Of a stretch of 64,000 nt of DNA, positions 3,544 through 64,000 are shown piece by piece. Position numbers and translations under genes: made by a program. Position 1 is the first letter of the stretch. Each line of letters opens with the position of its first letter. This stretch comes from a virus. The DNA lies in IMG/VR virus record IMGVR_UViG_3300048694_001042, positions 24,494-88,493 of that record; one strand, 5' to 3'. Below the pieces are notes generated by a model. It had not been told where the DNA came from and did not search any database. It saw nothing but the letters and a program-made list of their open reading frames with translations.

Positions 3544-3544
3544 A

Positions 3545-44312: not shown

Positions 44313-44498
44313 TGCGAGAAGAAAAACTCTACACTGTGCGCTGGACGCAAGAATACACCCTGTGGCCCACTATGGACTTGACCGAGGCTCGTGCTGTGTT
44401 GGCAAGGATCATGGCGCTATGAAATACATTCATCACATCCATTGCTTTGTGCTAGGTGTGTTTGTTGGGGTCAACATTGTGTTTTTTATGGTGATCAA

Positions 44499-46819: not shown

Positions 46820-47049
46820 ATTCAGCACAAAGACGTCGAGCACGACGTGAATTTCCGCATGTGGTGTTGTTGAACCCAGCAGAATCAGAACGGTACTTTC
46901 AGCATGACAACCGAGTAATCAAAGCCCGTGGGTGGTGTCGGCGTCAATTTGTCGAAGGTACCTGGACCAGCAAAGAACTTTGGGACCACGCAGAGTTTAA
47001 GTTTAGTAAACAAAAGGATGCAGTGTATTTTGCACTCAAATGGTCATGA
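46816..47049 (+). CDS. LRW-family protein A10
   Basis: ATGA overlap; ends YFALKWS. Confidence 0.75.
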   Translation: MNSAQRRRARREFPHVVLLNPAESERYFQHDNRVIKARGWCRRQFVEGTWTSKELWDHAEFKFSKQKDAVYFALKWS

Positions 47050-47237
47050 AGGTTTATCAAGTTGTGGGCTACCCACGCAATCATTATTTTGTTAAAACTT
47101 TTTCAGAGTTATTGGAAATTATGAGTTGGATGCAAAAGAACAATGTAGGTCATTTGCACGAATCCAGCGGCCTACACGGATATGGATTTAGCGTTCGTAA
47201 GAACATCGAGTGGTTTGCATTGAAGTGGTTGACATGA
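47046..47237 (+). CDS. LRW-family protein A11
   Basis: ATGA overlap; ends WFALKWLT. Confidence 0.75.
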   Translation: MKVYQVVGYPRNHYFVKTFSELLEIMSWMQKNNVGHLHESSGLHGYGFSVRKNIEWFALKWLT

Positions 47238-47506
47238 CGCACATCAAAACTTGGCGTTTAACTTGGAGTTACGATAGCTTGCCCGGTGCCCACGACATCG
47301 AGTACGCAGAAAGTCTTGGCTGCACGGTTGTGGTCCACGACAACATAAAGACGGCAGAAATTACAGGTCCAGATGGCAGAGCCTATTATTATGCCCGGCC
47401 CAGTTTCTACGGATTGGAATTTATTACTACAACCGATAGACAAGAAATGGCTTTGCTGTTAAAATATGGAGACTTACTAGAGCTTCGGCGCACCAAAGCA
47501 ATATGA
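47234..47506 (+). CDS. LRW-family variant A12
   Basis: ATGA overlap; ALLLKYG plus short extension. Confidence 0.65.
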   Translation: MTHIKTWRLTWSYDSLPGAHDIEYAESLGCTVVVHDNIKTAEITGPDGRAYYYARPSFYGLEFITTTDRQEMALLLKYGDLLELRRTKAI

Positions 47507-47787
47507 TGATGACTAATGTTCAGAATTGGATTCGTAGTAAGCGACCGCATGTTCGTGATATGGTCTATGGCGATAAACTTTTTTACTTTGCACCATACGA
47601 AGAGCCCGGTTGGCTTAGAGATGATGGGTACCGATGGTATCGCATAAGTTGCAGTTATTGGTTCGCGGACTGGATCGAAGCAAACGGAATCAAAAATGTG
47701 CAGTGGGAAGCTTACGGTGAACGGCATCGTGCCATTTACATGGTGCGTGATGACTTGTTTGCGTTTATAAAGTTGAAGTGGCTGTGA
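47503..47787 (+). CDS. LRW-family protein A13
   Basis: ATGA overlap; ends FIKLKWL. Confidence 0.75.
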   Translation: MMMTNVQNWIRSKRPHVRDMVYGDKLFYFAPYEEPGWLRDDGYRWYRISCSYWFADWIEANGIKNVQWEAYGERHRAIYMVRDDLFAFIKLKWL

Positions 47788-47802
47788 AAACGTGTTGCAC
47801 AA

Positions 47803-48018
47803 ATGAGTTATTTGAAGCATGAGGTGAAAATTCACAAAGACCAATATTGGGACGCCACTCACTGGTGTTTTGACCAGTTTGGTAGCAGATGGAGTCCGGT
47901 CAGCAACAGATCGGGTGCGTGGGCAGTATTTTGGTGTGGTACTGATCAGCGAAACCTATATAGGTTTTCTTTTGCTCAGGAGCAGGACATGGTTTGGTTT
48001 GCATTGAGGTTTGCATGA
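47803..48018 (+). CDS. LRW-family protein A14
   Basis: 15 nt gap upstream; ends WFALRFA. Confidence 0.75.
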   Translation: MSYLKHEVKIHKDQYWDATHWCFDQFGSRWSPVSNRSGAWAVFWCGTDQRNLYRFSFAQEQDMVWFALRFA

Positions 48019-48242
48019 AAGTCAATCTATTTAATCATTGGTTCAAATATAAAGTCCCTGTTGATACGCATATTGATAGGGTTAAGGATGCTGTATTAAA
48101 AGATAAACAACATTACTTGCGTTTTTGGGGCTGGCTCAATGATGTACATGATGTGGGGCAATACTACAAAGTCAGTGAAGGTCGCAACTACATGGTATTT
48201 CACAATCGAGCTCACTATATGATGTTTCTGTTAAAATTATGA
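48015..48242 (+). CDS. LRW-family protein A15
   Basis: ATGA overlap; ends MFLLKL. Confidence 0.7.
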   Translation: MKVNLFNHWFKYKVPVDTHIDRVKDAVLKDKQHYLRFWGWLNDVHDVGQYYKVSEGRNYMVFHNRAHYMMFLLKL

Positions 48243-48505
48243 TACTTCGAGACATAGACAAACTTTGGTATACCTTGCCGGACAAGATGGAGAACTTCAC
48301 CGGTCAGCGAGTAGACGACGATCCGGAGTGTCGCCGTTTTATTCGCAAAAACTTCAGTCATTGGCAATTCAGCGGTCTGGACAAGTTTGACGAAATTTTG
48401 ATTTGGTGCGAACAACACCTGGGCAATAATTTTATTTGGGACTGGGAAACCATTTATTTCAAGACTGAGCAAGACCGGGCGTTCTTTTTGTTGAGGTGGG
48501 CATGA
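48239..48505 (+). CDS. LRW-family protein A16
   Basis: ATGA overlap; ends FFLLRWA. Confidence 0.75.
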   Translation: MILRDIDKLWYTLPDKMENFTGQRVDDDPECRRFIRKNFSHWQFSGLDKFDEILIWCEQHLGNNFIWDWETIYFKTEQDRAFFLLRWA

Positions 48506-48708
48506 AATACTGGAACAAAGATAAAAACACTAGACAGAAACATTGGTTTCGTGTTGAGCTGCCCAACAAAGGGTGGAACTACGCTCAATCCAAGCGTGAG
48601 TTACAACTGCAAGACAGCCCGGGTAAGTTTTATCTCTACTACGGTAGCAATAGTATTTGGTTTGAGCGCGAGCAGGATGCTATGTGGTTTAGGTTGAAAT
48701 GTGTATGA
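48502..48708 (+). CDS. LRW-family protein A17
   Basis: ATGA overlap; ends WFRLKCV. Confidence 0.75.
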   Translation: MKYWNKDKNTRQKHWFRVELPNKGWNYAQSKRELQLQDSPGKFYLYYGSNSIWFEREQDAMWFRLKCV

Positions 48709-48935
48709 GAGTAGATATTGAACCGCAGTGGAAGCGACTGGCCAACTGGTATTGGGACAATGCTGGCGGCTACGAAGGTGTGGGCATGAGCATTTGGGCA
48801 ATGCTGGAGCGTGACTACGGTGCTATCAAAGTTTACCATGGTGTCCGCGGCGGCAAACTCGGAGCAAAGCACCAGTCCTTGGTGGAATTTCCTGACGAAA
48901 AAACTTATACAATGTTCTTATTGAGGTTTGGATGA
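48705..48935 (+). CDS. LRW-family protein A18
   Basis: ATGA overlap; ends MFLLRFG. Confidence 0.75.
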   Translation: MRVDIEPQWKRLANWYWDNAGGYEGVGMSIWAMLERDYGAIKVYHGVRGGKLGAKHQSLVEFPDEKTYTMFLLRFG

Positions 48936-49165
48936 TTAGAATAAAGATATTTGAAGAAGATCGCCATCCATTAGAAATCCCACAATGGTGGTATAACTTT
49001 TGTCCAGATAGTTTCGGCGAAGAAGAACTCAATCATGCTCTCATGGACTGGTCAGCAAACTTTTGGATAGCAAAACCCATAAATCCGTTAAACGGTTACG
49101 GGGACAGATATCTTGATTTTTACGATGAAAAAGCGTATACTTGGTTTATGCTGAGGTGGACATAG
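48932..49165 (+). CDS. LRW-family protein A19
   Basis: ATGA overlap; ends WFMLRWT. Confidence 0.75.
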   Translation: MIRIKIFEEDRHPLEIPQWWYNFCPDSFGEEELNHALMDWSANFWIAKPINPLNGYGDRYLDFYDEKAYTWFMLRWT

Positions 49166-49407
49166 TGTTTATCCATACATACGAGCTGATGAAAGATGCA
49201 GATGGTTCCGGTGGCGGACCATGGCACGTTGCGGCATTTACTGCTCCAAGAAGCTATCGTGAGATTGTTGAGTGGTGCTTAAAAACATTTGGACCAGCAG
49301 GCTACCATGATACACCGCAGGCCAGATGGAAAAATGATATTTTCTACGGTGAAGTATATTTTAGTCGTCAAGAAGACCTTGAGTGGTTTGTATTGAGGTG
49401 GTCATGA
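49165..49407 (+). CDS. LRW-family protein A20
   Basis: TAGTG overlap; ends WFVLRWS. Confidence 0.7.
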   Translation: MFIHTYELMKDADGSGGGPWHVAAFTAPRSYREIVEWCLKTFGPAGYHDTPQARWKNDIFYGEVYFSRQEDLEWFVLRWS

Positions 49408-49619
49408 AAACTATCCCACAGCATCCTTACCTACAAAATATTGTGGCAGAATACCGTCGTCAGCATGGAATGGGACCCACGCACTTATGGGATTCCAATC
49501 ACTATGTCAAATGGCTAAAACAATTTGGATTTCGAGTTCCCATGGACTTTCACAAAATAGAATTTCCTGACGATTTTTCTGACCAAGATTTGCTGTTGTT
49601 TGTATTGAGGTGGCGGTAA
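49404..49619 (+). CDS. LRW-family protein A21
   Basis: ATGA overlap; ends LFVLRWR. Confidence 0.75.
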   Translation: MKTIPQHPYLQNIVAEYRRQHGMGPTHLWDSNHYVKWLKQFGFRVPMDFHKIEFPDDFSDQDLLLFVLRWR

Positions 49620-49822
49620 TGTACTATCTACCAATCAGCCCCTACCATAAACATTTATGTGACTATTGGGATGCTACTGGTCGTGGCCAAACACCTACTA
49701 GCAACTTTTGGGCTTGGGTCGAAAAAGAATACGGTGCTGAACTCACGCTATGGGAACGACCCGAGCGATGGCGATTTAAGGATGAACAAGATATGATTTG
49801 GTTTGCGTTGAGGTGGCGATGA
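49619..49822 (+). CDS. LRW-family protein A22
   Basis: TAATG overlap; ends WFALRWR. Confidence 0.75.
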   Translation: MYYLPISPYHKHLCDYWDATGRGQTPTSNFWAWVEKEYGAELTLWERPERWRFKDEQDMIWFALRWR

Positions 49823-50109
49823 AAATAAACTTCAAGAGTGTAGATGATGTAGCACATGATGTGTTGGTTGACCATTTTCGTGGCTTGCTAGAAATCGTGC
49901 CGGCATACGTTCCTGACGGGTTTGTCAATGAAGGGCGAAAACCGCCTGAAGGTTATGAGAGCTATGTTTGCGTGGATGTGTTAGGTGAAGAACTGTTGTG
50001 GATGAACGAACAGTTCCCCCAAGAACAATACACTTGGTATATTTGGTTTGAGTCAATATTTTTAGTTACTCCGGAAATGGCTTCGTACTTGAAGTTGAAG
50101 TGGTCATGA
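49819..50109 (+). CDS. LRW-family protein A23
   Basis: ATGA overlap; ends YLKLKWS. Confidence 0.75.
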   Translation: MKINFKSVDDVAHDVLVDHFRGLLEIVPAYVPDGFVNEGRKPPEGYESYVCVDVLGEELLWMNEQFPQEQYTWYIWFESIFLVTPEMASYLKLKWS

Positions 50110-50351
50110 AACCCTGCGAACTACAAACCATGCTGGCACGAGCCATACGTGATTCGGTACAGGACAAGCCATGGACTCCTCCTCCAGAAGCACGAGTTAT
50201 TACAGGCAATCCCAAACATGACGCACAACTGCACCATGTGCTGGTTGAATATGGCATAGAGGTAGAGTTGGGAAAATACCATGACCTTGTGGATTACCGT
50301 GTTGTCGATGAACAAAAGTTCATGATGTTTTTGTTGAAGTGGGCACGATGA
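50106..50351 (+). CDS. LRW-family protein A24
   Basis: ATGA overlap; ends MFLLKWAR. Confidence 0.75.
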   Translation: MKPCELQTMLARAIRDSVQDKPWTPPPEARVITGNPKHDAQLHHVLVEYGIEVELGKYHDLVDYRVVDEQKFMMFLLKWAR

Positions 50352-50533
50352 CCAAATTTCGAATCGATCATCGATACAACCATATTGGCGTCAACGTCTT
50401 TCTCTGTGCCAACGAGTTTGACCAAATATACAATTGGTGCTATAATAAACCCGAAGCATACGATTGTTATTCCACTGGATTCGTATATCGAACCAAAAAT
50501 GATTTAACAATGTTTTTGTTGAGGTGGTCATGA
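50348..50533 (+). CDS. LRW-family protein A25
   Basis: ATGA overlap; ends MFLLRWS. Confidence 0.75.
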   Translation: MTKFRIDHRYNHIGVNVFLCANEFDQIYNWCYNKPEAYDCYSTGFVYRTKNDLTMFLLRWS

Positions 50534-50730
50534 AAGTAGTAGAAAGCTCAAGTTATTCTGGATGGAACGACTATCCTGTTTATAGAGTCAGATCGTTTCA
50601 AGATTGGCTTGACCTTATTGGGTGGATGAAAGAAAACCACGTAGAACATTTTTTACTGTCATCGGGTTATGGTGGATATGTATTTCAAGTTAAAACTAAT
50701 GCCGAATGGTTTGCACTGAGGTGGTCATGA
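50530..50730 (+). CDS. LRW-family protein A26 (close paralog of A4)
   Basis: ATGA overlap; shares YPVYRVRSFQDW and VEHFLLSS; ends WFALRWS. Confidence 0.78.
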   Translation: MKVVESSSYSGWNDYPVYRVRSFQDWLDLIGWMKENHVEHFLLSSGYGGYVFQVKTNAEWFALRWS

Positions 50731-51002
50731 AAGTGCATGAAATGCAAGACGGGCAAGTGTTTGGACATCGCTATACTGTGATTCCCTGTGAGTTTTTTGA
50801 CTACGATCGTCAAGCCGATTCGGATGAACTCTGGCGTAGTGAAGAACTCAAAGCCCTGAATCTATGGTGTTGGGAAGCGTTTGGCGAACAAGGTGAACCC
50901 TATGACTATATGGGTGCGCCTCACCGTTGGTATCAGCAAAAAGGACAGTTTTGGTTTCGTGATGCGGCAGATGTCGCTTGGTTTAAGTTGAAATGGGCAT
51001 GA
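50727..51002 (+). CDS. LRW-family protein A27
   Basis: ATGA overlap; ends WFKLKWA. Confidence 0.75.
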   Translation: MKVHEMQDGQVFGHRYTVIPCEFFDYDRQADSDELWRSEELKALNLWCWEAFGEQGEPYDYMGAPHRWYQQKGQFWFRDAADVAWFKLKWA

Positions 51003-51340
51003 ACTACAATCCTACTACAGCAGCCAGTGTAGCTGCCAATGGACAAAAGATATTACTTCCTATGATTAGGAAGGTTATGCCTACCATTATGGCACAGCAG
51101 ATTGTGGGGGTGCAACCTATGACAAATAATCTAGGTATCTTTAATCGGTTACTCTACAAAAATTTCAATAAGAAATATTGGCCCTATCAATATTTTATCG
51201 ATGATAAAACATATCGAATTAGCGATGTTGAGCGTTGGTGTTGGGATCAGTTCAAAGGTCGCTACTGGAACAATTACGGCAGGAACTTTGTATTCAAGCG
51301 TGAGAAGGATGCTGTGATGTTTGCCTTGAGGTGGCTATGA
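50999..51340 (+). CDS. LRW-family protein A28 with N-terminal major-capsid (Gol-like) peptide
   Basis: ILLPMIRKVMPTIMAQQIVGVQPMT; ends MFALRWL. Confidence 0.75.
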   Translation: MNYNPTTAASVAANGQKILLPMIRKVMPTIMAQQIVGVQPMTNNLGIFNRLLYKNFNKKYWPYQYFIDDKTYRISDVERWCWDQFKGRYWNNYGRNFVFKREKDAVMFALRWL

Positions 51341-51597
51341 TGGCAGTTACAATGATTGAACGCATGGTTGGGGACGGTAAGCCTTATAAGGTGCCAAAGT
51401 TACACAGGATCGTGTGGAAGACACGCACTTGGGCAGGTAGTCCATCATATTTGGATGAAAACTTCCTGGAAATGGACGCATGGTGTGAAAAAAACTGTCG
51501 GCATCCTTACTACCACGGCCCTGCTTGGCAACATGACTGTTTTATTGAGTTTGAATGTGATCAAGATGCCACAATGTTTGCCTTGAGGTGGCTATGA
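51337..51597 (+). CDS. LRW-family protein A29
   Basis: ATGA overlap; ends MFALRWL; bracketed by identical 24 bp repeats. Confidence 0.75.
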   Translation: MMAVTMIERMVGDGKPYKVPKLHRIVWKTRTWAGSPSYLDENFLEMDAWCEKNCRHPYYHGPAWQHDCFIEFECDQDATMFALRWL

Positions 51598-51767
51598 GTT
51601 ATTTGTATACTACACCGGATGATGTTAAACCTGAATTTGGCGCGTGGACTAATCGCAAAGAATGGTGTGAAAAGAATTGCCAAGGAGCATGGAAATACAT
51701 GCTCCAAGGTAAGTTTGTTTTCTATGACGAAAAAGATTATGTGTTGTTCATGTTGAGGTGGTCATGA
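51594..51767 (+). CDS. LRW-family protein A30 (57 aa, missing from ORF track)
   Basis: MSYLYTTPDD...EWCEKNCQGAW...FVFYDEKDYVLFMLRWS. Confidence 0.75.
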   Translation: MSYLYTTPDDVKPEFGAWTNRKEWCEKNCQGAWKYMLQGKFVFYDEKDYVLFMLRWS

Positions 51768-52027
51768 TTCATCCAAATGATCCGCTTGCTAAGGATCTTT
51801 TTGAAAAAGAACCTAACATTCTTATGTTGGCCAAGAGCTCGGTGGACGGTGAGCAGTGGTACACAATCAGTTGTTTGCGAGATGTGTCAATGTGGATACA
51901 CAACGAGCACAGCGAACAAGAAAACAAGCTGTGGTTTGAAAATACTGACAGCCGTTGGCGGCGGAATTTCAACGTGTTTGATGTTCACGAAAAGTTTTAC
52001 TCCATACTGGCACTGAGGTGGTTATGA
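51764..52027 (+). CDS. LRW-family protein A31
   Basis: ATGA overlap; ends ILALRWL. Confidence 0.75.
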   Translation: MIHPNDPLAKDLFEKEPNILMLAKSSVDGEQWYTISCLRDVSMWIHNEHSEQENKLWFENTDSRWRRNFNVFDVHEKFYSILALRWL

Positions 52028-52245
52028 CTTACTGGAGCACACATCAATTTTTTCCTGTGGCAAAAACGTACAATTCATCATGGCTTTGTCAAGAAGCAGA
52101 GTTTTGCAAGCAATATTTTGGGGACAACGATCCTTACCAATTGCTACAGCACCGTGCTTGGTTTACTGGTCCTGACGGTGTTTGGATTCGACTTGACTGT
52201 GTGGACTCCACTATTGCCACGTGGTTTGCCCTAAAGCGATCATAA
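52024..52245 (+). CDS. LRW-family protein A32 (last in array 1)
   Basis: ATGA overlap; ends WFALKRS. Confidence 0.7.
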   Translation: MTYWSTHQFFPVAKTYNSSWLCQEAEFCKQYFGDNDPYQLLQHRAWFTGPDGVWIRLDCVDSTIATWFALKRS

Positions 52246-52246
52246 C

Positions 52247-52266
52247 AAAGCCCCTTGCGGGGCTTT
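52247..52266. terminator. bidirectional terminator closing array 1
   Basis: AAAGCCCC-TTGC-GGGGCTTT between convergent genes. Confidence 0.8.
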
Positions 52267-52271
52267 GATTT

Positions 52272-54992: not shown

Positions 54993-55348
54993 TGGAATTT
55001 GACTTTTTGAGTTTTTTGATTGGTATTGTGGCAGGTCTATCCATGGCCTACTGCGTTGTGCATTGGGTAGGCCAGCGACTGATTCGCCAACTGGAAGCTG
55101 CTGTAGTGGAAGAAGAAGCCAAATCACAAATCCCACGCATCGAAATGAAAGTAGAACGGCACGGTGATGTGTGGTATGCATTTGACGCTACCAATGATGA
55201 TTTTGTGTGCCAAGGCGTGGACTTGAAAGAACTCAAAGCAAATTTCATCAAGCGATTCCCGGGCCACGATGGCGCCATTGTAGATGCAGCCAAAGACCTG
55301 CAGGAAGAACTGGTCCGACAGAAAAAAGAACTGTCAAAAGCCAGTTGA
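54989..55348 (+). CDS. membrane-anchored hypothetical protein
   Basis: N-terminal TM helix; FVCQG. Confidence 0.65.
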   Translation: MMEFDFLSFLIGIVAGLSMAYCVVHWVGQRLIRQLEAAVVEEEAKSQIPRIEMKVERHGDVWYAFDATNDDFVCQGVDLKELKANFIKRFPGHDGAIVDAAKDLQEELVRQKKELSKAS

Positions 55349-55373
55349 CCAATATAGGCTTTTGTGCTATAAT
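55345..55373 (+). promoter_or_regulatory. sigma70-like promoter
   Basis: TTGACC-17-TATAAT, ATG 6 nt downstream. Confidence 0.75.
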
Positions 55374-55379
55374 TGCTGT

Positions 55380-56192
55380 ATGAAAATATCTATTACCAGC
55401 GATAACCACTTGGAGTTCGCAGACCATGACTTTGAAAACACAGACAATGCTGAAGTGTTGATTCTGGGTGGCGATATTCTTGTGGTCAACGATTTGCGTG
55501 ATCACGACGCTGCCAACGTCATGGGCGAAAACACCAAGAGCCAGCGGTGGCATGCGTTTATGCAACGCTGTGCCCAACGTTTCCCGCACGTGGTAATGAT
55601 CATGGGCAACCACGAACACTATCATGGAAACTTTTCCAGTTCAGCTCGCAAGCTCAAAGCGGCCTTTGCATACCTGCCCAATGTGCATGTGCTGGACAAT
55701 GAAACATGGACACACCAAGATGTCACGTTTGTTGGCGGCACCATGTGGACCAACATGAACAACAGTGATGCATTGACCTTGTATCACATGCAAACCATGA
55801 TGAATGACTTCAGGGTTATTTGGTACGAAGGCAAGGGACGCAAGTTTCGCCCTGTGGATGCGTTTGAAGAACATGTTAAATTTCTGCGGTACGTTGACAC
55901 AGTCACACAAGGTCGCGCTGATCAAAAGTTTGTTGTGGCGGGTCACCATGCGCCCAGCAAGCTCAGCACCAAGCCCCGGTACCAAGATGATACTATCATG
56001 AATGGCGGTTACAGCAGTGACTTGAGTGAGTTTATTTTGAATCATCCACAGATTCGTCTGTGGACACACGGACACACTCATGACAGTTTTGACTACACAA
56101 TTGGCGAAACTCGAATTGTGTGTAACCCCCGAGGGTACGCAGGACATGAACAAAGGGCCGACGAATGGCAACTGGTAACAGTGGAGATTTAA
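55380..56192 (+). CDS. calcineurin-like metallophosphoesterase
   Basis: SDNH, GGD, GNHEHY, HHAP, HGHTH, CNPRGY. Confidence 0.9.
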   Translation: MKISITSDNHLEFADHDFENTDNAEVLILGGDILVVNDLRDHDAANVMGENTKSQRWHAFMQRCAQRFPHVVMIMGNHEHYHGNFSSSARKLKAAFAYLPNVHVLDNETWTHQDVTFVGGTMWTNMNNSDALTLYHMQTMMNDFRVIWYEGKGRKFRPVDAFEEHVKFLRYVDTVTQGRADQKFVVAGHHAPSKLSTKPRYQDDTIMNGGYSSDLSEFILNHPQIRLWTHGHTHDSFDYTIGETRIVCNPRGYAGHEQRADEWQLVTVEI

Positions 56193-56407
56193 CTGAAACT
56201 CGAGCAATTGGTGTTCGCGGGTTCCTAATCAGAACTGGCGACACCATCTTGTTTCGTGTGTATGATCATGAACACAACTTTGTGGATTATGAAATAACCA
56301 ACTACGATTGCGAAATTGTGATCATTGACCCCGACGCTGCCTTGATTCGACATGAAGCCGGGGATTTTTTAGACTACACCGAACAAAGCATGTGCCCAAT
56401 AACATGA
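56165..56407 (+). CDS. hypothetical protein
   Basis: 80 aa ORF in operon. Confidence 0.55.
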   Translation: MATGNSGDLTETRAIGVRGFLIRTGDTILFRVYDHEHNFVDYEITNYDCEIVIIDPDAALIRHEAGDFLDYTEQSMCPIT

Positions 56408-56598
56408 AAACAGTAACATTGACCAGAGGACAGGTATTGAAGTTGGCAACTTTTCTCACCCTTGACCAAGGTATTGAAAGTGTCGAGATTGAGGAAAACC
56501 ACAGCTCAGGCATTGGGCCAGGTCATCGAGTTTGGTTTAACAAGAGTCAAATTGAAAAAAGTTTTGAAGAAGACATAACAGACGTGAGCAACTGGTAA
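56404..56598 (+). CDS. hypothetical protein
   Basis: ATGA/TAATG overlaps. Confidence 0.6.
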   Translation: MKTVTLTRGQVLKLATFLTLDQGIESVEIEENHSSGIGPGHRVWFNKSQIEKSFEEDITDVSNW

Positions 56599-57338
56599 TG
56601 AAAGTATACATCAGCAACTATCGAGATCACTGGATCTCACCGTACACCATGTTAGACTGGGTGTTCTTTTGGACTGACTGGTCAAAGTGCAGTCGCAACT
56701 GGACATTGACCGACACACTGGAAGATGATGCTAACACAACAAAAGGTGGCCGGAGCCGTTATGTGGAGCGCCCGGAATGGTGCGAAAAGTGGGCGGATCG
56801 CTTGACCCCCGTCAGTCAAGCAATCCAGTGGGTTGGCCAAAAGATTTGGCCCCGAGTGGAATATGTCAAAATTGACCGTTGGGACACTTGGAGCATGGAT
56901 CATACTTTGGGCATGATTGCTTTGCCCATGCTCAAGCAACTGCAAGCAACCAAGCACGGCGCCCCACTGGTGGACGACGAGGATGTGCCTGACGAACTGC
57001 GTAGCACCAGCGCACCACCTCGAGAAAATGAATACGACACAGATGACAACCACTTCCGGCGTTGGGACTGGGTCATAAGCGAAATGATCTTTGCGTTTGA
57101 ACACCGGTTAGATGACTCGTGGCAAGATGCTTACCGTTCAGGCAAGATTGATCATGTGATGGTGCCTGTGGATGCTGGCGGTAACACTGTACCAAAGGGC
57201 AAGCACAAATACTATAAAATGGGACATGGTCCCAACCACACTTATGTCTGTGACTATGATGGCATTCGTCGAGTGGAAGAGCGTATTCAAAACGGCTTCC
57301 GACTGTGGGGAAAATATTTCCAGGCGTTGTGGGATTGA
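56598..57338 (+). CDS. conserved phage hypothetical protein
   Basis: IDRWDTWSMDHTL..KHGAP..GKYFQALWD. Confidence 0.75.
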   Translation: MKVYISNYRDHWISPYTMLDWVFFWTDWSKCSRNWTLTDTLEDDANTTKGGRSRYVERPEWCEKWADRLTPVSQAIQWVGQKIWPRVEYVKIDRWDTWSMDHTLGMIALPMLKQLQATKHGAPLVDDEDVPDELRSTSAPPRENEYDTDDNHFRRWDWVISEMIFAFEHRLDDSWQDAYRSGKIDHVMVPVDAGGNTVPKGKHKYYKMGHGPNHTYVCDYDGIRRVEERIQNGFRLWGKYFQALWD

Positions 57339-57340
57339 TA

Positions 57341-58060
57341 ATGAACATTGTAGATTTGACATTTGACGTTGACAACGATTTAGATGTTTTTGAAAAGTTG
57401 CTGGAGACACCGCCAAGCCCACCGCTGAGCTTTGCAGATGATCCAATTGCCATGGCCTGGAGTGCTTATCGCTCCAGAACTGGGCGCTACATGGGTGATA
57501 TTCAACAAGCTGTGGTCACTGATGAAGATCGAGCGCAAGCACAACAAATTCGCAATCACTATCATCGTCGCATTACTTTTCAACTGCTGACCAATGCTGG
57601 GCGCCCACTTAGTCCGTTTCAACGCAAACTCATGGGCATTGTTGCTGGCACACACGAAATAACCAAAGACGACTTGGGTATTTTGCATCGCATACCTTTC
57701 TTTTACGTGGAAGATTGCGACGTGGATCGTATGATTGAAAACTCACCCAAGCATGAATTTGACTTTCAAACGTTTGTTGATCGAACTGATCAGTTTGAAT
57801 TGATGCACAAGATTTCAGTTGAACGAAAGTCTCGCAGTGCTACACATTTTTGGTTGCGAGCCTCGTCCTCACCGTCGCTGTGTAAAATCGCTGTGTTAAA
57901 AGACAACCCGCTGTCAGACCTGTTAGAAAGTGTGTTGAGTCAGCCTGCAGTTAAACTCACTGCCAACTGGCACCCAAGGGAAAGAACATCCAACTATCAA
58001 AAATATTTTCACTATCAATTGGCCGCAGTGAAATTGTCAACAGGAGCGCACTTTGGGTGA
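57341..58060 (+). CDS. hypothetical protein
   Basis: 239 aa ORF. Confidence 0.65.
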   Translation: MNIVDLTFDVDNDLDVFEKLLETPPSPPLSFADDPIAMAWSAYRSRTGRYMGDIQQAVVTDEDRAQAQQIRNHYHRRITFQLLTNAGRPLSPFQRKLMGIVAGTHEITKDDLGILHRIPFFYVEDCDVDRMIENSPKHEFDFQTFVDRTDQFELMHKISVERKSRSATHFWLRASSSPSLCKIAVLKDNPLSDLLESVLSQPAVKLTANWHPRERTSNYQKYFHYQLAAVKLSTGAHFG

Positions 58061-58304
58061 ATCAGTATTTGGCAACATGGCATATGACTTGGTCACTGAC
58101 CATGCAGGACAAATTGTTGAGTCAATAGAGGAAAATCAGTACAATCAGTGGCAACGTGAATTTGTGTGGGATGCTTTGCAAAATCAAAGGTTCGGTCAAA
58201 GTTTTTGCAAAGCATTTGACATAAAGGACGCTATCCTGTATTATGAACGTGACTGGGTGCGAGCCGATGCTTACATTAGAAGAAACTATATTGCACGACC
58301 GTGA
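58053..58304 (+). CDS. hypothetical protein
   Basis: AGGAG SD, TTG start; RFGQSFC. Confidence 0.6.
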   Translation: MGESVFGNMAYDLVTDHAGQIVESIEENQYNQWQREFVWDALQNQRFGQSFCKAFDIKDAILYYERDWVRADAYIRRNYIARP

Positions 58305-58521
58305 ATCGTGGTCCACAATTGTGTTGCTCGGCTGTTTGCCAATGGATGCTGTGGTAAAAAAACATGATTTGATATCAGACGGCTTGGTACTAGATGAAGA
58401 TTTTTGTTGGGGCTATCGTTCATCAGAGTATGACGGTTTTACGATGAATCGTGATCGTCATGCTGTGTTTGCGTTTAGAGATCCTGTGGTGGCTGGATTT
58501 TATAGATTAAAATGGTTATGA
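58267..58521 (+). CDS. LRW-family protein B1
   Basis: ends FYRLKWL; start uncertain. Confidence 0.6.
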   Translation: MLTLEETILHDRESWSTIVLLGCLPMDAVVKKHDLISDGLVLDEDFCWGYRSSEYDGFTMNRDRHAVFAFRDPVVAGFYRLKWL

Positions 58522-58874
58522 TCGAACGCTTTGTATTGAACGACTTGCCTGATGGCTGGTCAGTGTCGTGGCCTGGCTTTGAGTGGGTAGTATGCGACAA
58601 CGAGCTCAAGGCCACTAACTTGCTAAAGATCTTGTTTGATGAAGTCAACGTGGATGAAGCTATTGTGGCGGTAAAATACAGTGACAAAGATTTTATAGTA
58701 AACATTCCTTGGTACACTTATCATCAGAATCCCGACGCTTCGGGCAGATTTTTAGTACGCAACCATGTAGTAACAGGTGTGAAATTTGTTACACTAGAGC
58801 AAGCACAAAAGTTCAAAGGCATCATGGACAAGCGACTGGCTTGGCGCCAACTGAGTGGCAGGAACTGGCAGTGA
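58518..58874 (+). CDS. hypothetical protein
   Basis: ATGA overlap; no LRW tail. Confidence 0.65.
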   Translation: MIERFVLNDLPDGWSVSWPGFEWVVCDNELKATNLLKILFDEVNVDEAIVAVKYSDKDFIVNIPWYTYHQNPDASGRFLVRNHVVTGVKFVTLEQAQKFKGIMDKRLAWRQLSGRNWQ

Positions 58875-59083
58875 TTAAAATTACTCTCAAAACGCAACTA
58901 ACAGGTCATCAACAACAATGGCTGACGCAAAACGTTGGACCCAGAATGTTTTATTTGCACAATCAAATAGGCGGAACTGGTTGGGTGGCCAAGCAAGAAA
59001 CTGTGCTGGGGAGTTACCGACAGTGGACACTGACGTTCGAAGATGATCGACTGGCAACTGCGTTTTTGCTAAAATGGAAATAA
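58871..59083 (+). CDS. LRW-family protein B2
   Basis: GTGA overlap; ends AFLLKWK. Confidence 0.7.
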   Translation: MIKITLKTQLTGHQQQWLTQNVGPRMFYLHNQIGGTGWVAKQETVLGSYRQWTLTFEDDRLATAFLLKWK

Positions 59084-59292
59084 CACAGCGAATCTATGAT
59101 GGATGCGATTGCTATCCCTGGCGCAAAACCTTTGTGATTTGGCCTAGACGTAGCATAACTGGGCAACGTGTTTGGATGACCGTTGCCTACAAACGACGAT
59201 ATTGGGCGGTGTGGGGCACCGGATTCCATATGGAACCTGAGGTAGAGTATGCTACAATATTTGAAATACTAGCAGATAATCATGGACGTTGA
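59074..59292 (+). CDS. hypothetical protein
   Basis: WRKTFVIWPRRSITGQRVWM. Confidence 0.6.
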   Translation: MEITQRIYDGCDCYPWRKTFVIWPRRSITGQRVWMTVAYKRRYWAVWGTGFHMEPEVEYATIFEILADNHGR

Positions 59293-59488
59293 AGCAGAAA
59301 ATACATTCAGAATCCTAAAGAATGAGCCGCCGTTGACTACCAGTTGGTTGTGTAGATTTGGTTGGCATCGCTGGACACAATGGTCAGAAGTGTACTTGCC
59401 TAAGAATGGACAAAACAATATTCAGCACAGTCACTGTGATCACTGCAACCGAATGCGAGTACATAAAGTAACAGGACCCGGAATATGA
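59282..59488 (+). CDS. Cys/His small protein
   Basis: LCRFGWHRW..CDHC. Confidence 0.6.
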   Translation: MDVEAENTFRILKNEPPLTTSWLCRFGWHRWTQWSEVYLPKNGQNNIQHSHCDHCNRMRVHKVTGPGI

Positions 59489-59706
59489 TACTAAAAGCAG
59501 AGCAAATCGAAAAGTGGTTGTATTATGAAACTGGGTTTGAACAACTGCATCCGCGCCCGCCTATTCTTAAGTGGATGGCAGAGCAAGGTTACAAGTATAA
59601 TCAAGATTGGCGTTGCACTCGAATGGTTACGCCCACGGGGCTGATCTATGGCTTGATGTTTCCCAGTGAGGAAGTAAAAATTATGTTTATGTTGAGGTGG
59701 TCATGA
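59485..59706 (+). CDS. LRW-family protein B3
   Basis: ATGA overlap; ends MFMLRWS. Confidence 0.75.
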   Translation: MILKAEQIEKWLYYETGFEQLHPRPPILKWMAEQGYKYNQDWRCTRMVTPTGLIYGLMFPSEEVKIMFMLRWS

Positions 59707-60050
59707 AACCTTGTGTTTGGTATGATACAGATGAAAAGTTGCCGCCTACCAAAGGCTACTACCTTGCGTTCAAAGGCATGAGCATGGGAGACGACGAAAC
59801 TGAGACAGCCTATTACTACTGGGACCCAAAGTATGCAGAGTGGCGAGACTACGAAAGCCGAAGCATTGGCGGCTATGCTAACGTGGTGTACTGGACTGAC
59901 GCCGACCCTGCTACCTGGTACGAAAATTACAGTATGCCACCACGAAGCAAAACCAAACGCAAAGTATCAGAGGCAGAAATAGATGCTTGGCGTGCTGTAG
60001 AACAAGCAATTGAACGATATGAAGTTGTAAGGGCATTAGCAAAGAAATGA
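59703..60050 (+). CDS. hypothetical protein (DUF551-like pattern)
   Basis: W....EKLP....YL..VVYW. Confidence 0.6.
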   Translation: MKPCVWYDTDEKLPPTKGYYLAFKGMSMGDDETETAYYYWDPKYAEWRDYESRSIGGYANVVYWTDADPATWYENYSMPPRSKTKRKVSEAEIDAWRAVEQAIERYEVVRALAKK

Positions 60051-60523
60051 ACTACTCAATAATGACAGACTCAGAGCTGCTACACTATCTAGACTTGTAT
60101 TCCAACGATCCACTGATTCGCAGGCTGGTTGACTTGATGCAAAACACTCGTGGCGAGGTTATCCGAGACTTAGTTGACGCAGGTATGGATTCAAAGACTT
60201 GGACATTTAGCACCGACTATGAAACAATGTATCCAGGTGAGTACATTGAATCACTGCGTAGTGAGCTTCGATGCAACGAACAAGACATGGATGACATGCG
60301 ATATGAATTGGAAAAAGCCTCCGATGAACGGGACGAATTAAAAACTCGCAACATCATGCAGTTCATCGAAGAAGTTCAGCAAGAAAAGCGAGCTGCTGCT
60401 GCCAAAGCCCAAGCGGCATACGCAGACGTTGCTAGCATTCGTGAGGAATCAAGCAAAGTAAAAAAAGAAAACGAAAAACTGCGAGAGCAAATCAACATGT
60501 GGGGGCGAATGAACACAGTATGA
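60047..60523 (+). CDS. coiled-coil protein
   Basis: ATGA overlap; heptads. Confidence 0.65.
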   Translation: MNYSIMTDSELLHYLDLYSNDPLIRRLVDLMQNTRGEVIRDLVDAGMDSKTWTFSTDYETMYPGEYIESLRSELRCNEQDMDDMRYELEKASDERDELKTRNIMQFIEEVQQEKRAAAAKAQAAYADVASIREESSKVKKENEKLREQINMWGRMNTV

Positions 60524-60738
60524 TTACCTACGTACAACCATGGGAAGAACTGCCCAGTTTGAGAGTACCACGCCTGCACCGAGTAAACTACAATCCCAAA
60601 TACAACTGGGGCGAAGTGCAATACTGGTGCAAGGAAAATTGTCGTGCTCCTTCCTACATGGGCGGTAGTTGGTCTGGAAACTTTGCGGAGTTTGAAGATG
60701 ATCAAGACGCTGTGCTGTTTGCATTGAAATGGGCATGA
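60520..60738 (+). CDS. LRW-family protein B4 (paralog of A29)
   Basis: VPRLHRV..WCKENCR..EFEDDQDAVLFALKWA. Confidence 0.75.
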   Translation: MITYVQPWEELPSLRVPRLHRVNYNPKYNWGEVQYWCKENCRAPSYMGGSWSGNFAEFEDDQDAVLFALKWA

Positions 60739-60959
60739 TCACCGCCAGTGTTAGATTAAAAGAGCCAGAAAATCAGTATAAGTTTATTGATGAGGGCCCT
60801 ATTAACGTCTGGTTGCTGGCCAATGTTGGTGTTCATGCAAGATTCAAAGATCTAGTGGATGAGGATCGTCCTTGGCATGTTGAACATAATTTTCGAGAAC
60901 TTGTGTATCATTTTGCTCGCGAGCAGGATGCCACTGCATTTGCATTGAGATGGTCATGA
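60735..60959 (+). CDS. LRW-family protein B5
   Basis: ATGA overlap; ends AFALRWS. Confidence 0.75.
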   Translation: MITASVRLKEPENQYKFIDEGPINVWLLANVGVHARFKDLVDEDRPWHVEHNFRELVYHFAREQDATAFALRWS

Positions 60960-61183
60960 ATAATAGAACATTACCCGGAACTTCGGAATCACTACACAAT
61001 GCTGGAGTTTGGTTGCGAGAGTATCTTAATGTACCTCCCCGGCATACAATTTTTGACCAGTTTGAAGAATACTTCAACTGTCAACTGGTTGTGGAGCACA
61101 GAGAAGATCCGTGGTACTGTCCGGACCGGGCTGTGTTCAACACCGAACAAGATTTAACAGCATTTTTATTGAGGTGGGCATGA
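60956..61183 (+). CDS. LRW-family protein B6
   Basis: ATGA overlap; ends AFLLRWA. Confidence 0.75.
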   Translation: MNNRTLPGTSESLHNAGVWLREYLNVPPRHTIFDQFEEYFNCQLVVEHREDPWYCPDRAVFNTEQDLTAFLLRWA

Positions 61184-61401
61184 TGTTTGATCACCCTGCA
61201 GTCATAAAACTGCAAACAACCAACATCTGGGACATTGAATCTCGGGTAAGCGAAATACATGAAATACGACGTTGGTTGGATGAACTAACACTGTGGCAAG
61301 ATGATATGTATCGTATGGAAACAATCACACCAAAGAACTCATTAAGGGTTTGGTTCAAGGATCCCCAGCATGCAGTGTTTTGCAAGCTGAGGTGGCCTTG
61401 A
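61180..61401 (+). CDS. LRW-family protein B7
   Basis: ATGA overlap; ends FCKLRWP. Confidence 0.75.
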   Translation: MMFDHPAVIKLQTTNIWDIESRVSEIHEIRRWLDELTLWQDDMYRMETITPKNSLRVWFKDPQHAVFCKLRWP

Positions 61402-61790
61402 TGTTTGGATTTAATCCAGCACCCGGCACGCCAGGTGGAAGACCTTGGTCAAAGGAACGTATGGCAAAGTGGGAAATAGATTTTAGATTTGGTCCGATTA
61501 GGGGATTGTGGTGGCGGTTCATGCCCGGTGTGCAAATTGAAGTGCCCTGGCCCACGGGCTGGACCGAACCCGAACCCGCGCCCGGTGGCGGATTTATACA
61601 GTTTGAGTCTGCGGACCCAAACGATCACTATCGTCCATGGCTTGAAAAGAACGTGGGCCGCCAAGGTTGGGATTGGGAATGGCGAATTGGGAAGGTGGCT
61701 GCTCAAACCAACGTACAAGATACTTTGGTAATCAAGTTTCGTCGAGGTCGAGAAAAGTATGCTACAATAGCAGCATTGAGGTGGGCGTGA
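61401..61790 (+). CDS. LRW-family protein B8
   Basis: TGATG overlap; ends IAALRWA. Confidence 0.75.
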   Translation: MFGFNPAPGTPGGRPWSKERMAKWEIDFRFGPIRGLWWRFMPGVQIEVPWPTGWTEPEPAPGGGFIQFESADPNDHYRPWLEKNVGRQGWDWEWRIGKVAAQTNVQDTLVIKFRRGREKYATIAALRWA

Positions 61791-62024
61791 GTGAAATACT
61801 TTTGGACCGATGGTGGCAATAATAGGCCTTATTTTAGATACAGAATCAAAGTGCCTAGATGTACCGCAGAAATGTATCGCTGGTGTGAACAGTATGACGA
61901 TGAAGGTGAGTACTTCAGACGATTTCATGTTGAGTGGAAATCAATACACATTGATAAAGAATATGAAATTGTGCAATTTGAATGGGAGCAGGCTGCTATC
62001 ATGTTTGCCTTGAGGTGGTTATGA
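61791..62024 (+). CDS. LRW-family protein B9
   Basis: GTG abutting upstream stop; ends MFALRWL. Confidence 0.75.
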   Translation: MKYFWTDGGNNRPYFRYRIKVPRCTAEMYRWCEQYDDEGEYFRRFHVEWKSIHIDKEYEIVQFEWEQAAIMFALRWL

Positions 62025-62251
62025 ATTCAAAACAACGCAGAAAAGATCGAAGAAAATGGCGGTACAGTGTTAGACTGACCACATCGGATGTAATGATCAA
62101 AGAATATAACCAAATATGGGATTGGTGCCGAAACACATATGGCAACGGACGCAGGTGTGCTGGATGGAGAGAAAAATTTGGACACTTTGGAACTTGCTGG
62201 CAGTTTACCAGCGACAAGAAAGCTGCTCTGTTTGCGCTGAGGTGGTGCTGA
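62021..62251 (+). CDS. LRW-family protein B10 (paralog of A10)
   Basis: MNSKQRRKDRR start; ends LFALRWC. Confidence 0.75.
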   Translation: MNSKQRRKDRRKWRYSVRLTTSDVMIKEYNQIWDWCRNTYGNGRRCAGWREKFGHFGTCWQFTSDKKAALFALRWC

Positions 62252-62496
62252 TGCCTGATCGGTTTCGTGTTAAACTTCCTGGCCTGTCTTGGCAACAACC
62301 GTGGCCCAAGTATTTTGATAACTTTTGGAAACACTGCGACGATGTTGCCAGAAAGAATCAGTGGTTCACCATCACCGTTGCCAATACTGAACTCAAGCCC
62401 ATGGGTGGCCGATTGATTCAAACCAAAACACAGGGCTGGTACCTACGTTGGGATAGTGAAGCCAGTCATACAGCATTTGTGTTAAAGTGGGCTTGA
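62251..62496 (+). CDS. LRW-family protein B11
   Basis: TGATG overlap; ends AFVLKWA. Confidence 0.75.
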   Translation: MPDRFRVKLPGLSWQQPWPKYFDNFWKHCDDVARKNQWFTITVANTELKPMGGRLIQTKTQGWYLRWDSEASHTAFVLKWA

Positions 62497-62738
62497 TGTC
62501 TAGGTCATTGAGTAAACCTTATGTTGCTACCAATCCGCGTTCAGTGCGCGGGGCAAAGAAACGTGGCTGGCACGTAGTCAAACCAAACCCCAACTATGTG
62601 GAGAGAGCAAGTTGGGTGGGACTGAACATTTGGTGTGAGCGTATGGCAGGGGGATATTGGGTAGCCAGTTTCCACCACCGTGAGTTTGCATTTGAATCCG
62701 GTGCTGATGCCATGATGTTCAAATTAAAGTGGGGATAA
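62496..62738 (+). CDS. LRW-family protein B12
   Basis: TGATG overlap; ends MFKLKWG. Confidence 0.75.
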   Translation: MSRSLSKPYVATNPRSVRGAKKRGWHVVKPNPNYVERASWVGLNIWCERMAGGYWVASFHHREFAFESGADAMMFKLKWG

Positions 62739-62748
62739 AAATCACTCA

Positions 62749-63039
62749 ATGATCCTGACCAGAAGTGAATTCAAACAATACTGGGACAACCTCGATCCAA
62801 GACTAACAGTGGATGATGGGCCGCTGTGGATACCCGACGAAGATACGCCCTCCAAATGGTTTGTGTGCGTCAAGCCCGTTGGCGTTCACAAGTTCAAGTG
62901 GAACTATTATGACTGGTGCAACCAAGCACTGAAAGGTCGAGTTCGTTGCTACAGTAGCAGCATCGACAATGAACAAGAGTGGTGGGGGTTTACTGAACAA
63001 CAGGACATAGCCTTTTGGCTATTGAAGTGGGCACAATGA
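62749..63039 (+). CDS. LRW-family protein B13
   Basis: ends FWLLKWAQ. Confidence 0.75.
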   Translation: MILTRSEFKQYWDNLDPRLTVDDGPLWIPDEDTPSKWFVCVKPVGVHKFKWNYYDWCNQALKGRVRCYSSSIDNEQEWWGFTEQQDIAFWLLKWAQ

Positions 63040-63278
63040 CTGACATAATGGAAGACTTTCGGCGCGGTAGATTCATAGTTGCGCCCAGCTACATCAGCCG
63101 TGGACTGTCCAATCCTCGTTATGGGCACATGATTGTGCTCACCGACATAGGTTTTTGGGCAGACAACATAGATGCGCTGGTACAGTGGTGCCAGGATCAC
63201 GGCTGTGAAACTCGAGGCATGACAGTGGACATACCTGATGATCACACCCTAACTCTTTTTTGCCTGCGGTGGAAATAG
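63036..63278 (+). CDS. LRW-family protein B14
   Basis: ATGA overlap; ends LFCLRWK. Confidence 0.75.
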   Translation: MTDIMEDFRRGRFIVAPSYISRGLSNPRYGHMIVLTDIGFWADNIDALVQWCQDHGCETRGMTVDIPDDHTLTLFCLRWK

Positions 63279-63293
63279 TCATACATAGTACTA

Positions 63294-63530
63294 ATGCAAA
63301 TCGCCAGCTCAGCAAAACAATTACGCGAAGAGAGCAGTTTCGCTTACTCCAAAGAGATAGCCAAACCTTTTGGCCAATTGGACGGCATTTTGGATTGGTG
63401 CCGTTCAGAACTCAATGGGGAATGGCGTTGGAAATTGATAACTGTAAGTTCGGACATAAGCCCGGGCCGATATCTTTTTTTCTTTGATTCTGAACGCGAT
63501 GCTTGTGCATTTACCATGCAGTGGGCTTGA
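63294..63530 (+). CDS. LRW-family protein B15
   Basis: WC..W..YLFFFDSERDACAFTMQWA. Confidence 0.7.
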   Translation: MQIASSAKQLREESSFAYSKEIAKPFGQLDGILDWCRSELNGEWRWKLITVSSDISPGRYLFFFDSERDACAFTMQWA

Positions 63531-63574
63531 AAACTAATATTTGAGCAGCGGCTGACCAAAAGTAATGCAAGCAA

Positions 63575-64000
63575 TCAAGCAAGTGTTGCGGTGGTGCTGC
63601 TGTAGTATAGATAATATCTATACGAACCCACAGTGGCTGTTGCACTGGCATTGTTAAAGCTGTTTGATGAAGAAGCAAGAACCCCCAAGATCACAACGCC
63701 AGCACCACCATTGCCTACTATCAAGCCACCGTAGCCACCACCACCACCACCCCCTGTATTGGCAGTACCGGACGCTCCTGTAGAACTACCCCAGCCGTTG
63801 CCGCCACCGTTGACTCCTGTGCCGCCAACCCAACTCGAGCCACCAGCGCCACCGCCACCGCCGCCGGCGTAGGTAGTGCCATTTCCACCTGCAGCCGAGG
63901 GCCATTGTAAACCTGCGCCACCCGAGCCGCCATTCGAGCCGCCAGGGCCTGTGGGAGCACCACCACCAGCACCTGCACCCGCACCTCCGCCCCCAGCAAC
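63575..64000 (-). CDS. glycine-rich domain protein, C-terminal part (runs off the window edge)
   Basis: open frame TYAGGGGGG..ANTGGGGGG..GNGGAGVVIL ending TGA at 63575-63577. Confidence 0.75.
   Translation of the reverse strand, partial: VAGGGGAGAGAGGGAPTGPGGSNGGSGGAGLQWPSAAGGNGTTYAGGGGGGAGGSSWVGGTGVNGGGNGWGSSTGASGTANTGGGGGGGYGGLIVGNGGAGVVILGVLASSSNSFNNASATATVGSYRYYLYYSSTTATLA

Follow-up and report, generated by a model that had tools for sequence, protein, structure and literature searches.

A 64,000-nucleotide (nt) stretch of viral DNA, positions 24,494 to 88,493 of IMG/VR record IMGVR_UViG_3300048694_001042 and here called the window, carries two arrays of small genes whose products share a C-terminal Leu-Arg-Trp (LRW) motif. 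The second, array 2 (58243–63530; coordinates are those of the window unless stated otherwise), contains 20 genes, all on the + strand, of which 15 belong to the LRW family and five are unrelated to it. The picture that we consider likely for this array combines insertion at a hotspot, a ribosome-binding site borne by the tails of LRW genes, an early operon with coupled translation, and shuffling of whole genes. Array 2 would form the distal part of a long early operon in the genome of a freshwater jumbo phage, and its 18 inner genes would have been inserted between the resident LRW genes 58243 and 63294, probably drawn from the pool of small genes that also supplies LRW arrays elsewhere. A ribosome ending one gene would restart on the next through an overlap of 4 nt (ATGA) or 1 nt (TGATG), and the codons TTG-AGG-TGG for Leu-Arg-Trp in the last helix of the protein would act as a Shine-Dalgarno-like site 5–8 nt before the next start. 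Every LRW gene would supply in this way the ribosome-binding site of its downstream neighbour, whether or not that neighbour belongs to the family. The common gene ends of 15–28 nt would permit short-homology recombination that adds, deletes or reorders whole genes and leaves a working junction.

A first-pass annotation of this DNA had reported 15 further LRW-family open reading frames (ORFs) here, the last 12 contiguous (60520–63530) and the first three interleaved with five unrelated genes, and tails and profile searches confirm this composition, for three members by tail plus in-sample profile only. The unrelated genes, also referred to below as cargo, are c1 (58518..58874, 118 amino acids), c2 (59074..59292, 72 amino acids), c3 (59282..59488, 68 amino acids, Cys/His-rich), c4 (59703..60050, 115 amino acids), and c5 (60047..60523, 158 amino acids, coiled-coil-like). 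The tail consensus of the family is h-x-L-[R/K]-W, and the 15 tails in array 2 read, in order, LKWL, LKWK, LRWS, LKWA, LRWS, LRWA, LRWP, LRWA, LRWL, LRWC, LKWA, LKWG, LKWAQ, LRWK, and MQWA. A profile of all 46 members in the window recovers 15 of these 15, an in-sample result by construction. A profile of array 1 members only finds 12 of the 15 at E ≤ 0.001 and misses 58243–58521 (no match), 62251–62496 (E 1.9), and 62749–63039 (E 0.54), the three genes whose membership is assigned by tail motif and in-sample profile only (in-sample E 1e-4 for 58243). The family profile does not match the five interleaved genes, the best of them being 59047–59289 at E 2.1. Genes c1 and c2, whose ends looked by eye like those of the family, were considered as decayed members and dropped at an hhalign probability of 0.1% each.

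The 15-nt sequence TTGAGGTGGTCATGA marks the junctions between these genes. The window holds six exact copies of it, and 22 copies when up to two mismatches are allowed, against 0.12 expected from shuffled sequences, and five of the 22 copies lie in array 2. Read in frame, the junction encodes Leu-Arg-Trp-Ser-stop, and the next ATG overlaps the TGA. The gene at 59703 (c4) had been described as starting from a perfect junction, and an exact copy indeed spans 59692..59706 on the + strand with the ATG of 59703 inside it. Among the 19 junctions of array 2, ten overlap by 4 nt, four overlap by 1 nt, one abuts, two overlap by 10–11 nt, and two are gaps (10 and 15 nt); thus 17 of 19 overlap or abut, the stop/start feature of a translationally coupled operon. 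Because the junctions c4–c5 and c5–60520, in which the upstream gene is not of the family, use ATGA as well, this overlap is a style of the operon and not a property of the family. The junction therefore consists of family C-terminal codons plus the ATGA overlap and is not a separate dedicated site. The earlier proposal that the junction also serves non-family cargo stands in that 58518 and 59703 start from LRW tails and 59074 starts through a 10-nt overlap, but the plug-in site that it implied dissolves into tail codons and ATGA. In the outside homologs P0003, P0004, P0011, P0023, and P0038, two LRW domains are fused and the first tail is read through (e.g., ...LTWH-M...), as expected if the stop inside an ATGA-type junction is lost.

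The codons of the tail are strongly biased. The tail Arg codon is AGG in 26 of 28 cases, AGA in one, and CGG in one (p about 1e-30), and the background share of AGG among Arg codons is 4.0% in long ORFs and 5.6% in the bodies of family genes; the tail Leu codon is TTG in 30 of 43 cases, compared with 26–35% elsewhere. AGG is also linked to the presence of an abutting start. In the window, it is found in 26 of 39 tails that are abutted by a start and in 0 of 6 that are not (p 0.003). When the related loci L001, L002, L003, and L005 are included, the counts are 40 of 63 and 0 of 11 (p 7e-5). In a set of 80 separately fetched loci, obtained with single-protein queries and the conserved gene 56598–57338 as anchor, they are 39 of 63 and 2 of 50 (p 3e-11). 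The motif G-AGG-TGG, from TTG-AGG-TGG, lies 5 nt before the start in the ATGA form and 8 nt before it in the TGATG form, and it is complementary to the usual 3′ end of 16S rRNA. AAGGAG-type sites precede other genes of the phage at 26 of 86 roughly placed starts, compared with 12% of random positions. Because of the AGG bias and its dependence on an abutting start, the tail codons most likely double as the Shine-Dalgarno sequence of the next gene, and we infer that ribosomes use the motif. A Lys/Arg toggle (AAG to AGG) was rejected as the source of the bias, as it would limit Arg to AGR codons, yet the AGG:AGA ratio is 26:1 in tails and about 1:4 in the background.

Conservation of AGG-TGG could instead reflect a need of the protein or the mRNA, such as a structural Arg or a rare-codon pause, unrelated to the next start. 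The Leu-Arg-Trp motif does lie in a confidently modelled terminal helix with a near-invariant Trp, and the occurrence of both Arg and Lys is as expected at a surface position; however, neither the 26:1:1 preference for AGG over AGA and CGG nor the near absence of AGG where no start abuts (0/6, 0/11, 2/50) is explained in this way, and we regard it as unlikely. Several observations nevertheless count against a ribosome-binding role of the tail. Tails in the loci are not independent, since orthologs are shared, and 23–24 coupled tails in each data set are not AGG. Coupled junctions with no G-AGG-TGG-like motif exist (c4–c5 and c5–60520), so the motif is not required. The GAGG core, at 5 nt from the start in the ATGA form, is at the short end of the usual range, and the anti-Shine-Dalgarno sequence was taken to be the usual one, which may not be that of the host.

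Translational coupling through ATGA or TGATG overlaps, with a Shine-Dalgarno sequence inside the upstream gene, is a familiar arrangement. The arrays resemble it in the stop/start overlap and in the purine-rich motif 5–8 nt upstream within the preceding coding sequence. They differ from the textbook case in that the motif is fixed within the structural motif of one protein family, with an otherwise rare codon that is kept in over 100 genes from many phages and given up where no gene lies behind it.

Upstream of array 2, a sigma-70-like promoter (TTGACC-17-TATAAT with TG; 55345..55373, + strand) is one of eight + strand occurrences of a phage motif whose spacer is conserved (TTGACCAATATTtCCCnTTTTGCTATAAT), located at 15139, 15297, 35494, 35728, 41567, 41928, 44027, and 55345. 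A promoter of the strict pattern is present at the same place in 7 of 29 relatives, and similar copies occur in L002 and L005. The copy at 44027 precedes array 1, and a strong terminator-like hairpin (52246–52267; a 9-bp stem with 6 G-C pairs and a T run) directly follows the last array 1 gene. Because this hairpin adjoins that gene, array 1 resembles a single unit that extends from the 44027 promoter to 52246–52267, as judged by these two elements.

Between 55345 and 63530, no strong terminator comparable to 52246–52267 was found, and a scan of 58243–63530 found no per-gene promoter or terminator (21 terminator-like sites, 19.0 expected). The 20 co-oriented genes of array 2, which lack promoters of their own, lie downstream of the common 55345-type promoter, and it is plausible from this layout that array 2 is the far end of the 55345 operon. 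The repeated sigma-70-like promoter suggests early expression. A promoter-like site at 58216 (11 of 12 positions) was discounted for want of the conserved spacer and because its -10 box runs into the ATG of 58243. The ATG of the phosphoesterase gene (55380) starts 7 nt after the -10 box of the 55345 promoter, and at 55345 and 53944 alike the next ATG follows the -10 box by 6–7 nt. Because the ATG is so near the -10 box, the sequence suggests that the phosphoesterase gene and the first gene at 53944 are leaderless.

The surroundings of array 2 are conserved in the synteny set, many loci retaining the block u2-u3-u4-phosphoesterase-g1-g2-anchor-g4-g5. In 28 of the 29 loci with g5, an ortholog of 63294 lies downstream of it, and the distance from the end of g5 to the end of this ortholog has a median of 712 bp (217–3,983) in relatives compared with 5,226 bp in the window. 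Orthologs of 63294–63530 are present in 32 of the 80 loci. Those of 58243 are present in 14 of the 80, directly after g5, and are retained in 10 of the 28 loci that have both g5 and the 63294 ortholog. The family profile finds one to three LRW genes at this site in those relatives. For the 18 inner genes, orthologs occur in 0–4 of the 80 loci, every one of them array-bearing, and in L064, L074, and L027 other unrelated genes occupy the same gap. On these comparisons, the site is a variable hotspot with g5 on one side and a conserved LRW gene on the other, and its fill in the window is unusually large.

Because 28 of 29 relatives are short at this site, we infer that 58243 and 63294 are the only genes native to it and that the 18 between them (58518–63278; 13 LRW and five cargo genes) are an insertion. 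The first-pass annotation missed that just the two end genes are native. Against the insertion call, repeated deletion would look alike in these unrooted comparisons. A similar set of larger genes, with ends in common (for example TPDSVEDNYRVGKGDSQ), occupies the g5 hotspot in L064 (9807–12926) and L074 (11020–14792) and follows the LRW array in L003 (5971–7455); the hotspots therefore appear to take up non-LRW modules also.

In other loci, both the inner LRW genes and the cargo genes have orthologs within LRW arrays. The five cargo genes have orthologs only in or beside such arrays (L002–L005, L013, L017, L054), at changing positions; none turned up at the conserved site in any of the 28 relatives with that site, and no cargo gene holds a fixed position in relatives lacking LRW genes. 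Nine LRW genes in L005 are followed by c1-c2-c3-c4, one unassigned ORF of 84 amino acids, and c5, with no LRW gene between the cargo genes, and c3-c4-c5 are adjacent in L004; LRW genes may therefore have come and gone between cargo genes no less than cargo genes between LRW genes. The order in L002 is c2, LRW, c1. The L003 array contains a c5-like gene and c2, and is placed between orthologs of the genes at contig positions 15360–16052 and 16353–16997, where the contig studied here has a single gene for 122 amino acids. Directly upstream of the anchor gene, L013 has 26 LRW genes with c2, c4, and c5 embedded, and L017 has 28 with c2 and c4 embedded. In L054, c4 lies within an array upstream of u2, which is the position of array 1 in the window. 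On the evidence of these neighbourhoods, the arrays are found in at least four contexts, and the cargo genes accompany them, in agreement with the earlier claim that the family is established at more than one locus.

Array 1 (44755–52245) has 31 members and one non-member. Recent local tandem amplification of a single LRW gene at the array 2 site, a gene accordion, would produce head-to-tail genes of similar size with a repeated junction, as is seen, and three array 1 members are 44–66% alike. The sequence relationships point the other way: paralogs share about 25% identity (17–40% to a reference member) compared with 55–89% for orthologs in other phages, the best paralog of all 15 array 2 members lies in array 1, and five unrelated genes are interleaved. 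In the tree of both arrays, a comparison that the first-pass annotation had called for, members are interspersed, with 13 changes of array label compared with 12.9 for shuffled labels and no array-specific clades. The tree rests on 61 columns, and the interspersion may partly reflect a lack of signal, which tells against reading much into it. By these comparisons the family paralogs are old and array 2 is not a local amplification; we hold the accordion to be extremely improbable. Outside the arrays there are two solitary weak family matches, at 36078–36446 (E 1e-4, tail FQLKCMG) and at contig position 11479–11730, upstream of the window (E 0.008); orthologs of the former sit within the arrays of L001 and L002.

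Whole-gene insertion, deletion, and replacement are observed between relatives. The LRW gene 59485–59706 is absent from L004 and L005, where the ATGAs that flank it in the window, at the end of c3 and the start of c4, are one single junction; gene order is scrambled in L001, L002, and L005; and the insert between g5 and the 63294 ortholog varies. The joint between 58871 and 59074 is irregular, with a 10-nt overlap where the tail codons AAA-TGG-AAA-TAA extend across an ATG internal to c2. Orthologs of c2 in L002, L003, and L005 have their start about 23 codons further upstream, at an ATGA, which is preceded by an LRW tail in L002 and L003 (the ortholog starts at ATGAGGTGGCAATGA in L002 and AAATGGTCATGA in L003). 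The joint looks like a product of short-homology, illegitimate recombination, to judge by this alignment. Some rearrangement breakpoints coincide with gene boundaries that lack an LRW junction, as behind the 59074 ortholog in L002.

Integron cassette arrays consist of promoterless genes in the same orientation that are read from one upstream promoter, with attC inverted repeats and an integrase of the tyrosine recombinase type. Variable content between relatives and the sharing of an array by unrelated genes are common to integrons and array 2. Were array 2 built of integron-like site-specific cassettes, the 15-nt junction would be a recombination site and a dedicated recombinase would move single genes, cargo included. 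Such a system would fit the co-oriented genes without promoters of their own behind a shared promoter, the whole-gene insertions, deletions, and reordering between relatives, and the junction as the best-conserved DNA in the arrays. The conservation of the junction is, however, accounted for by protein codons and by the link between AGG and the start. The repeats are coding, direct, and 15–28 nt long, most of the would-be cassettes come from one protein family, and no attC-like inverted repeats were found at junctions, where just direct repeats of 16–28 nt recur (nine inverted-repeat pairs are scattered elsewhere). A search of the 88.5-kb contig, which is about 25% complete, found no tyrosine recombinase (PF00589), and all control genomes matched. 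Breakpoints also lie at boundaries without a junction, and the 58871/59074 joint, which removed about 23 N-terminal codons of a cargo gene, looks illegitimate rather than site-specific. Because of these breakpoints, the irregular c2 joint, and the failure to find an integrase (in a fragment) or attC-like repeats, a site-specific cassette system is rejected as very unlikely; by the features tested, array 2 is not an integron.

The nearest described shuffling system, as far as the available parts of the reports describe it, is that of promoter early stem-loop (PeSL) cassettes in the hyperplastic regions of T4-type phages, in which a non-coding promoter and a stem-loop terminator make each gene its own transcription unit (Arbiol et al., 2010, PMC2839356). 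Whole genes are inserted, deleted, or replaced among close relatives, and the authors explain this by recombination between copies of the repeated motif (Arbiol et al., 2010; Comeau et al., 2014, PMC4122927). As in PeSL regions, so described, the LRW arrays line up small, mostly unknown genes that look non-essential, in variable parts of large-phage genomes, with a short repeated motif at gene boundaries. Unlike the PeSL motif in that description, the LRW repeat is coding and carries a putative ribosome-binding site in place of a promoter or terminator, and the genes would form one coupled operon with no per-gene promoter or terminator found in the scan. Judged by sequence features, the closest functional parallel to the array is a translationally coupled operon located in a hyperplastic region.

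A bolder and more doubtful extension, which we put forward tentatively, treats the LRW tail as a portable adaptor with two jobs, ribosome site and dispersed homology. Genes or array segments would be copied between distant sites in jumbo phages without a recombinase, and array 2 would be a segment of another array recombined into two resident LRW genes. The family would then be both cargo and vehicle of an early-gene arsenal, including its copies with a major capsid fragment.

Within array 2, member 1 (58243..58521, tail FYRLKWL) is divergent and is the conserved left bracket; its start is uncertain, since it overlaps an upstream ORF ending at 58304 and in-frame alternatives are present. The ATGA of this LKWL tail provides the start of gene c1, whose orthologs are in L002 and L005. 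Member 2 (58871..59083, tail LLKWK) has a GTG start, and its last codons hold the ATG of c2, which lacks the N-terminal extension of about 23 residues found in the L002, L003, and L005 orthologs. Member 3 (59485..59706, tail MFMLRWS) fits exactly between the ATGA ending c3 and the ATGA starting c4. Eleven contiguous LRW genes (60520..63278) then start at 60520, 60735, 60956, 61183, 61401, 61791, 62021, 62251, 62496, 62749, and 63036. Member 15 (63294..63530, tail FTMQWA) is the conserved right bracket and has no abutting start downstream.

LRW proteins have 60–130 amino acids, about 6% Trp, a variable N-terminus, and a shared C-terminal alpha/beta domain of about 50 residues with a hydrophobic core. 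The AlphaFold model of the 60520 member (pLDDT 88.8) has three strands, a helix, two strands, and a final helix. The near-invariant residues W36, W51, F58, F67, L69, and W71 are all hydrophobic. No membrane-like segment was found (highest 19-residue hydropathy 1.21), which indicates soluble proteins. The family profile matches 4,012 cluster representatives at E ≤ 0.001 among 1.84 billion proteins. Of the top 150 matches, 149 carry the domain, which ends within three residues of the C-terminus in 145 of the 149; eight are tandem fusions, and the tail contains RW in 114 and KW in 24 of the top matches with the domain. The nearest Atlas clusters are annotated "hypothetical protein" and are 94–100% viral, and on this sampling the family is virus-restricted.

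Database searches with the 15 array 2 members gave nothing in Pfam beyond one sub-threshold Glyoxalase_4 row (17.7 bits, cut-off 27) and no match in PHROGs or NCBIfam. With 150 family proteins, no Pfam family matched more than two members (E ≤ 0.1), and PHROGs gave only two major-head-protein families with one member each (E ≤ 0.001). Searching solved structures by sequence with the family profile gave a best E of 0.17, nothing usable. The fold matches, which weigh against drawing function from the model, are weak and of a generic alpha/beta sandwich (best E 0.08 and none ≤ 0.001 in PDB by Foldseek; Z ≤ 5.9 in VIA), and the RRM and KH rows in VIA (Z 4.4–5.4) are within the stated background of the tool. 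Structure matches in BFVD are uncharacterized proteins of uncultured Caudovirales and of the Agrobacterium jumbo phage Atu_ph07. In the open-access literature searched, no relevant account of such tail motifs, of paralogous small phage proteins in tandem, or of paralog expansions in jumbo phages was found.

These BFVD matches have the same small alpha/beta domain (Foldseek probability 0.9–1.0, TM about 0.5–0.65) and an F..L[RK][WFY] end, and five proteins of Atu_ph07 (MF403008) match the family profile. The Atu_ph07 copies differ in being dispersed, in that several have C-terminal extensions past the motif, and in lacking the tight AGG-TGG-NNA-TGA junction.

One array 1 member (50999–51340) has an N-terminal fragment of a major capsid protein (Pfam Gp23, positions 2–44 of 376, E 5.8e-9), and tblastn matches it to capsid genes in 116 phage records, at about residues 46–93 of a Vibrio phage capsid protein. 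This capsid–LRW fusion recurs in the outside homolog P0002 and in an Atlas cluster of 113 members, and P0007 and P0020 have weaker, sub-threshold Gp23 matches; it could be a capsid-mimic decoy. At low confidence, we guess from the early-type promoters, small size, number of paralogs, and variable N-termini that LRW proteins may be a diversified early host-interaction set, acting in host takeover or anti-defence.

The window is the last 64 kb of a single virus contig of 88,493 bp, classed as linear in IMG/VR and estimated by CheckV to be 25% complete. The fragment encodes ribonucleotide reductase, isocitrate lyase, DNA ligase, ClpX, Hsp70, and UvdE. Isocitrate lyase (9613–10821), a ClpX-type ATPase (20576–21811), and a full-length Hsp70 (22320–24206) are host-like and unusual for a phage. 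Freshwater metagenomes contain near-identical DNA, and relatives of a conserved neighbour gene lie on contigs of 300–374 kb; for these two reasons the source is identified as a fragment of a freshwater jumbo phage. A contig of 4,917 nt from a freshwater run is collinear with 58547–63463, and contigs from four freshwater runs revealed no structural variant of array 2. The joints listed in freshwater-run contigs have sides of just 21–25 nt and appear to be matches to the junctions of other family genes. A search of 50,697 deposited phage records for DNA near-identical to 55000–63600 gave no match, which leaves the phage without a close relative in that set, and tblastn with the family proteins P0159 and P0016 matched nothing in phage records even at E 1.

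GC skew is strongly positive in both arrays (44001–52000 and 58001–62000), at 0.15–0.18 compared with about 0.03 elsewhere, which probably reflects the Trp/Gly-rich codon content of the family. Beyond array 2, the contig end (63575–64000) is G+C-rich, with a Gly-rich reading on the - strand, a Pro-rich reading on the + strand, and no Pfam match. In relatives, the 63294 ortholog is followed by ordinary + strand genes.

Unknown functions in host takeover and anti-defence reside mainly in the small early genes of large phages, whose acquisition and continued expression are only partly understood. The LRW family makes up about 14% of this 88-kb phage fragment and has thousands of relatives in freshwater viromes; a family of this size merits a domain entry and a functional screen. 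If the portable-adaptor reading is true, the arrays would be a coding-sequence analogue of PeSL cassettes. On the likelier picture given first, the last three codons of LRW genes would be held at the nucleotide level so that any gene placed behind them is translated, which would provide a testable rule for how operons take in foreign genes without new regulatory DNA.

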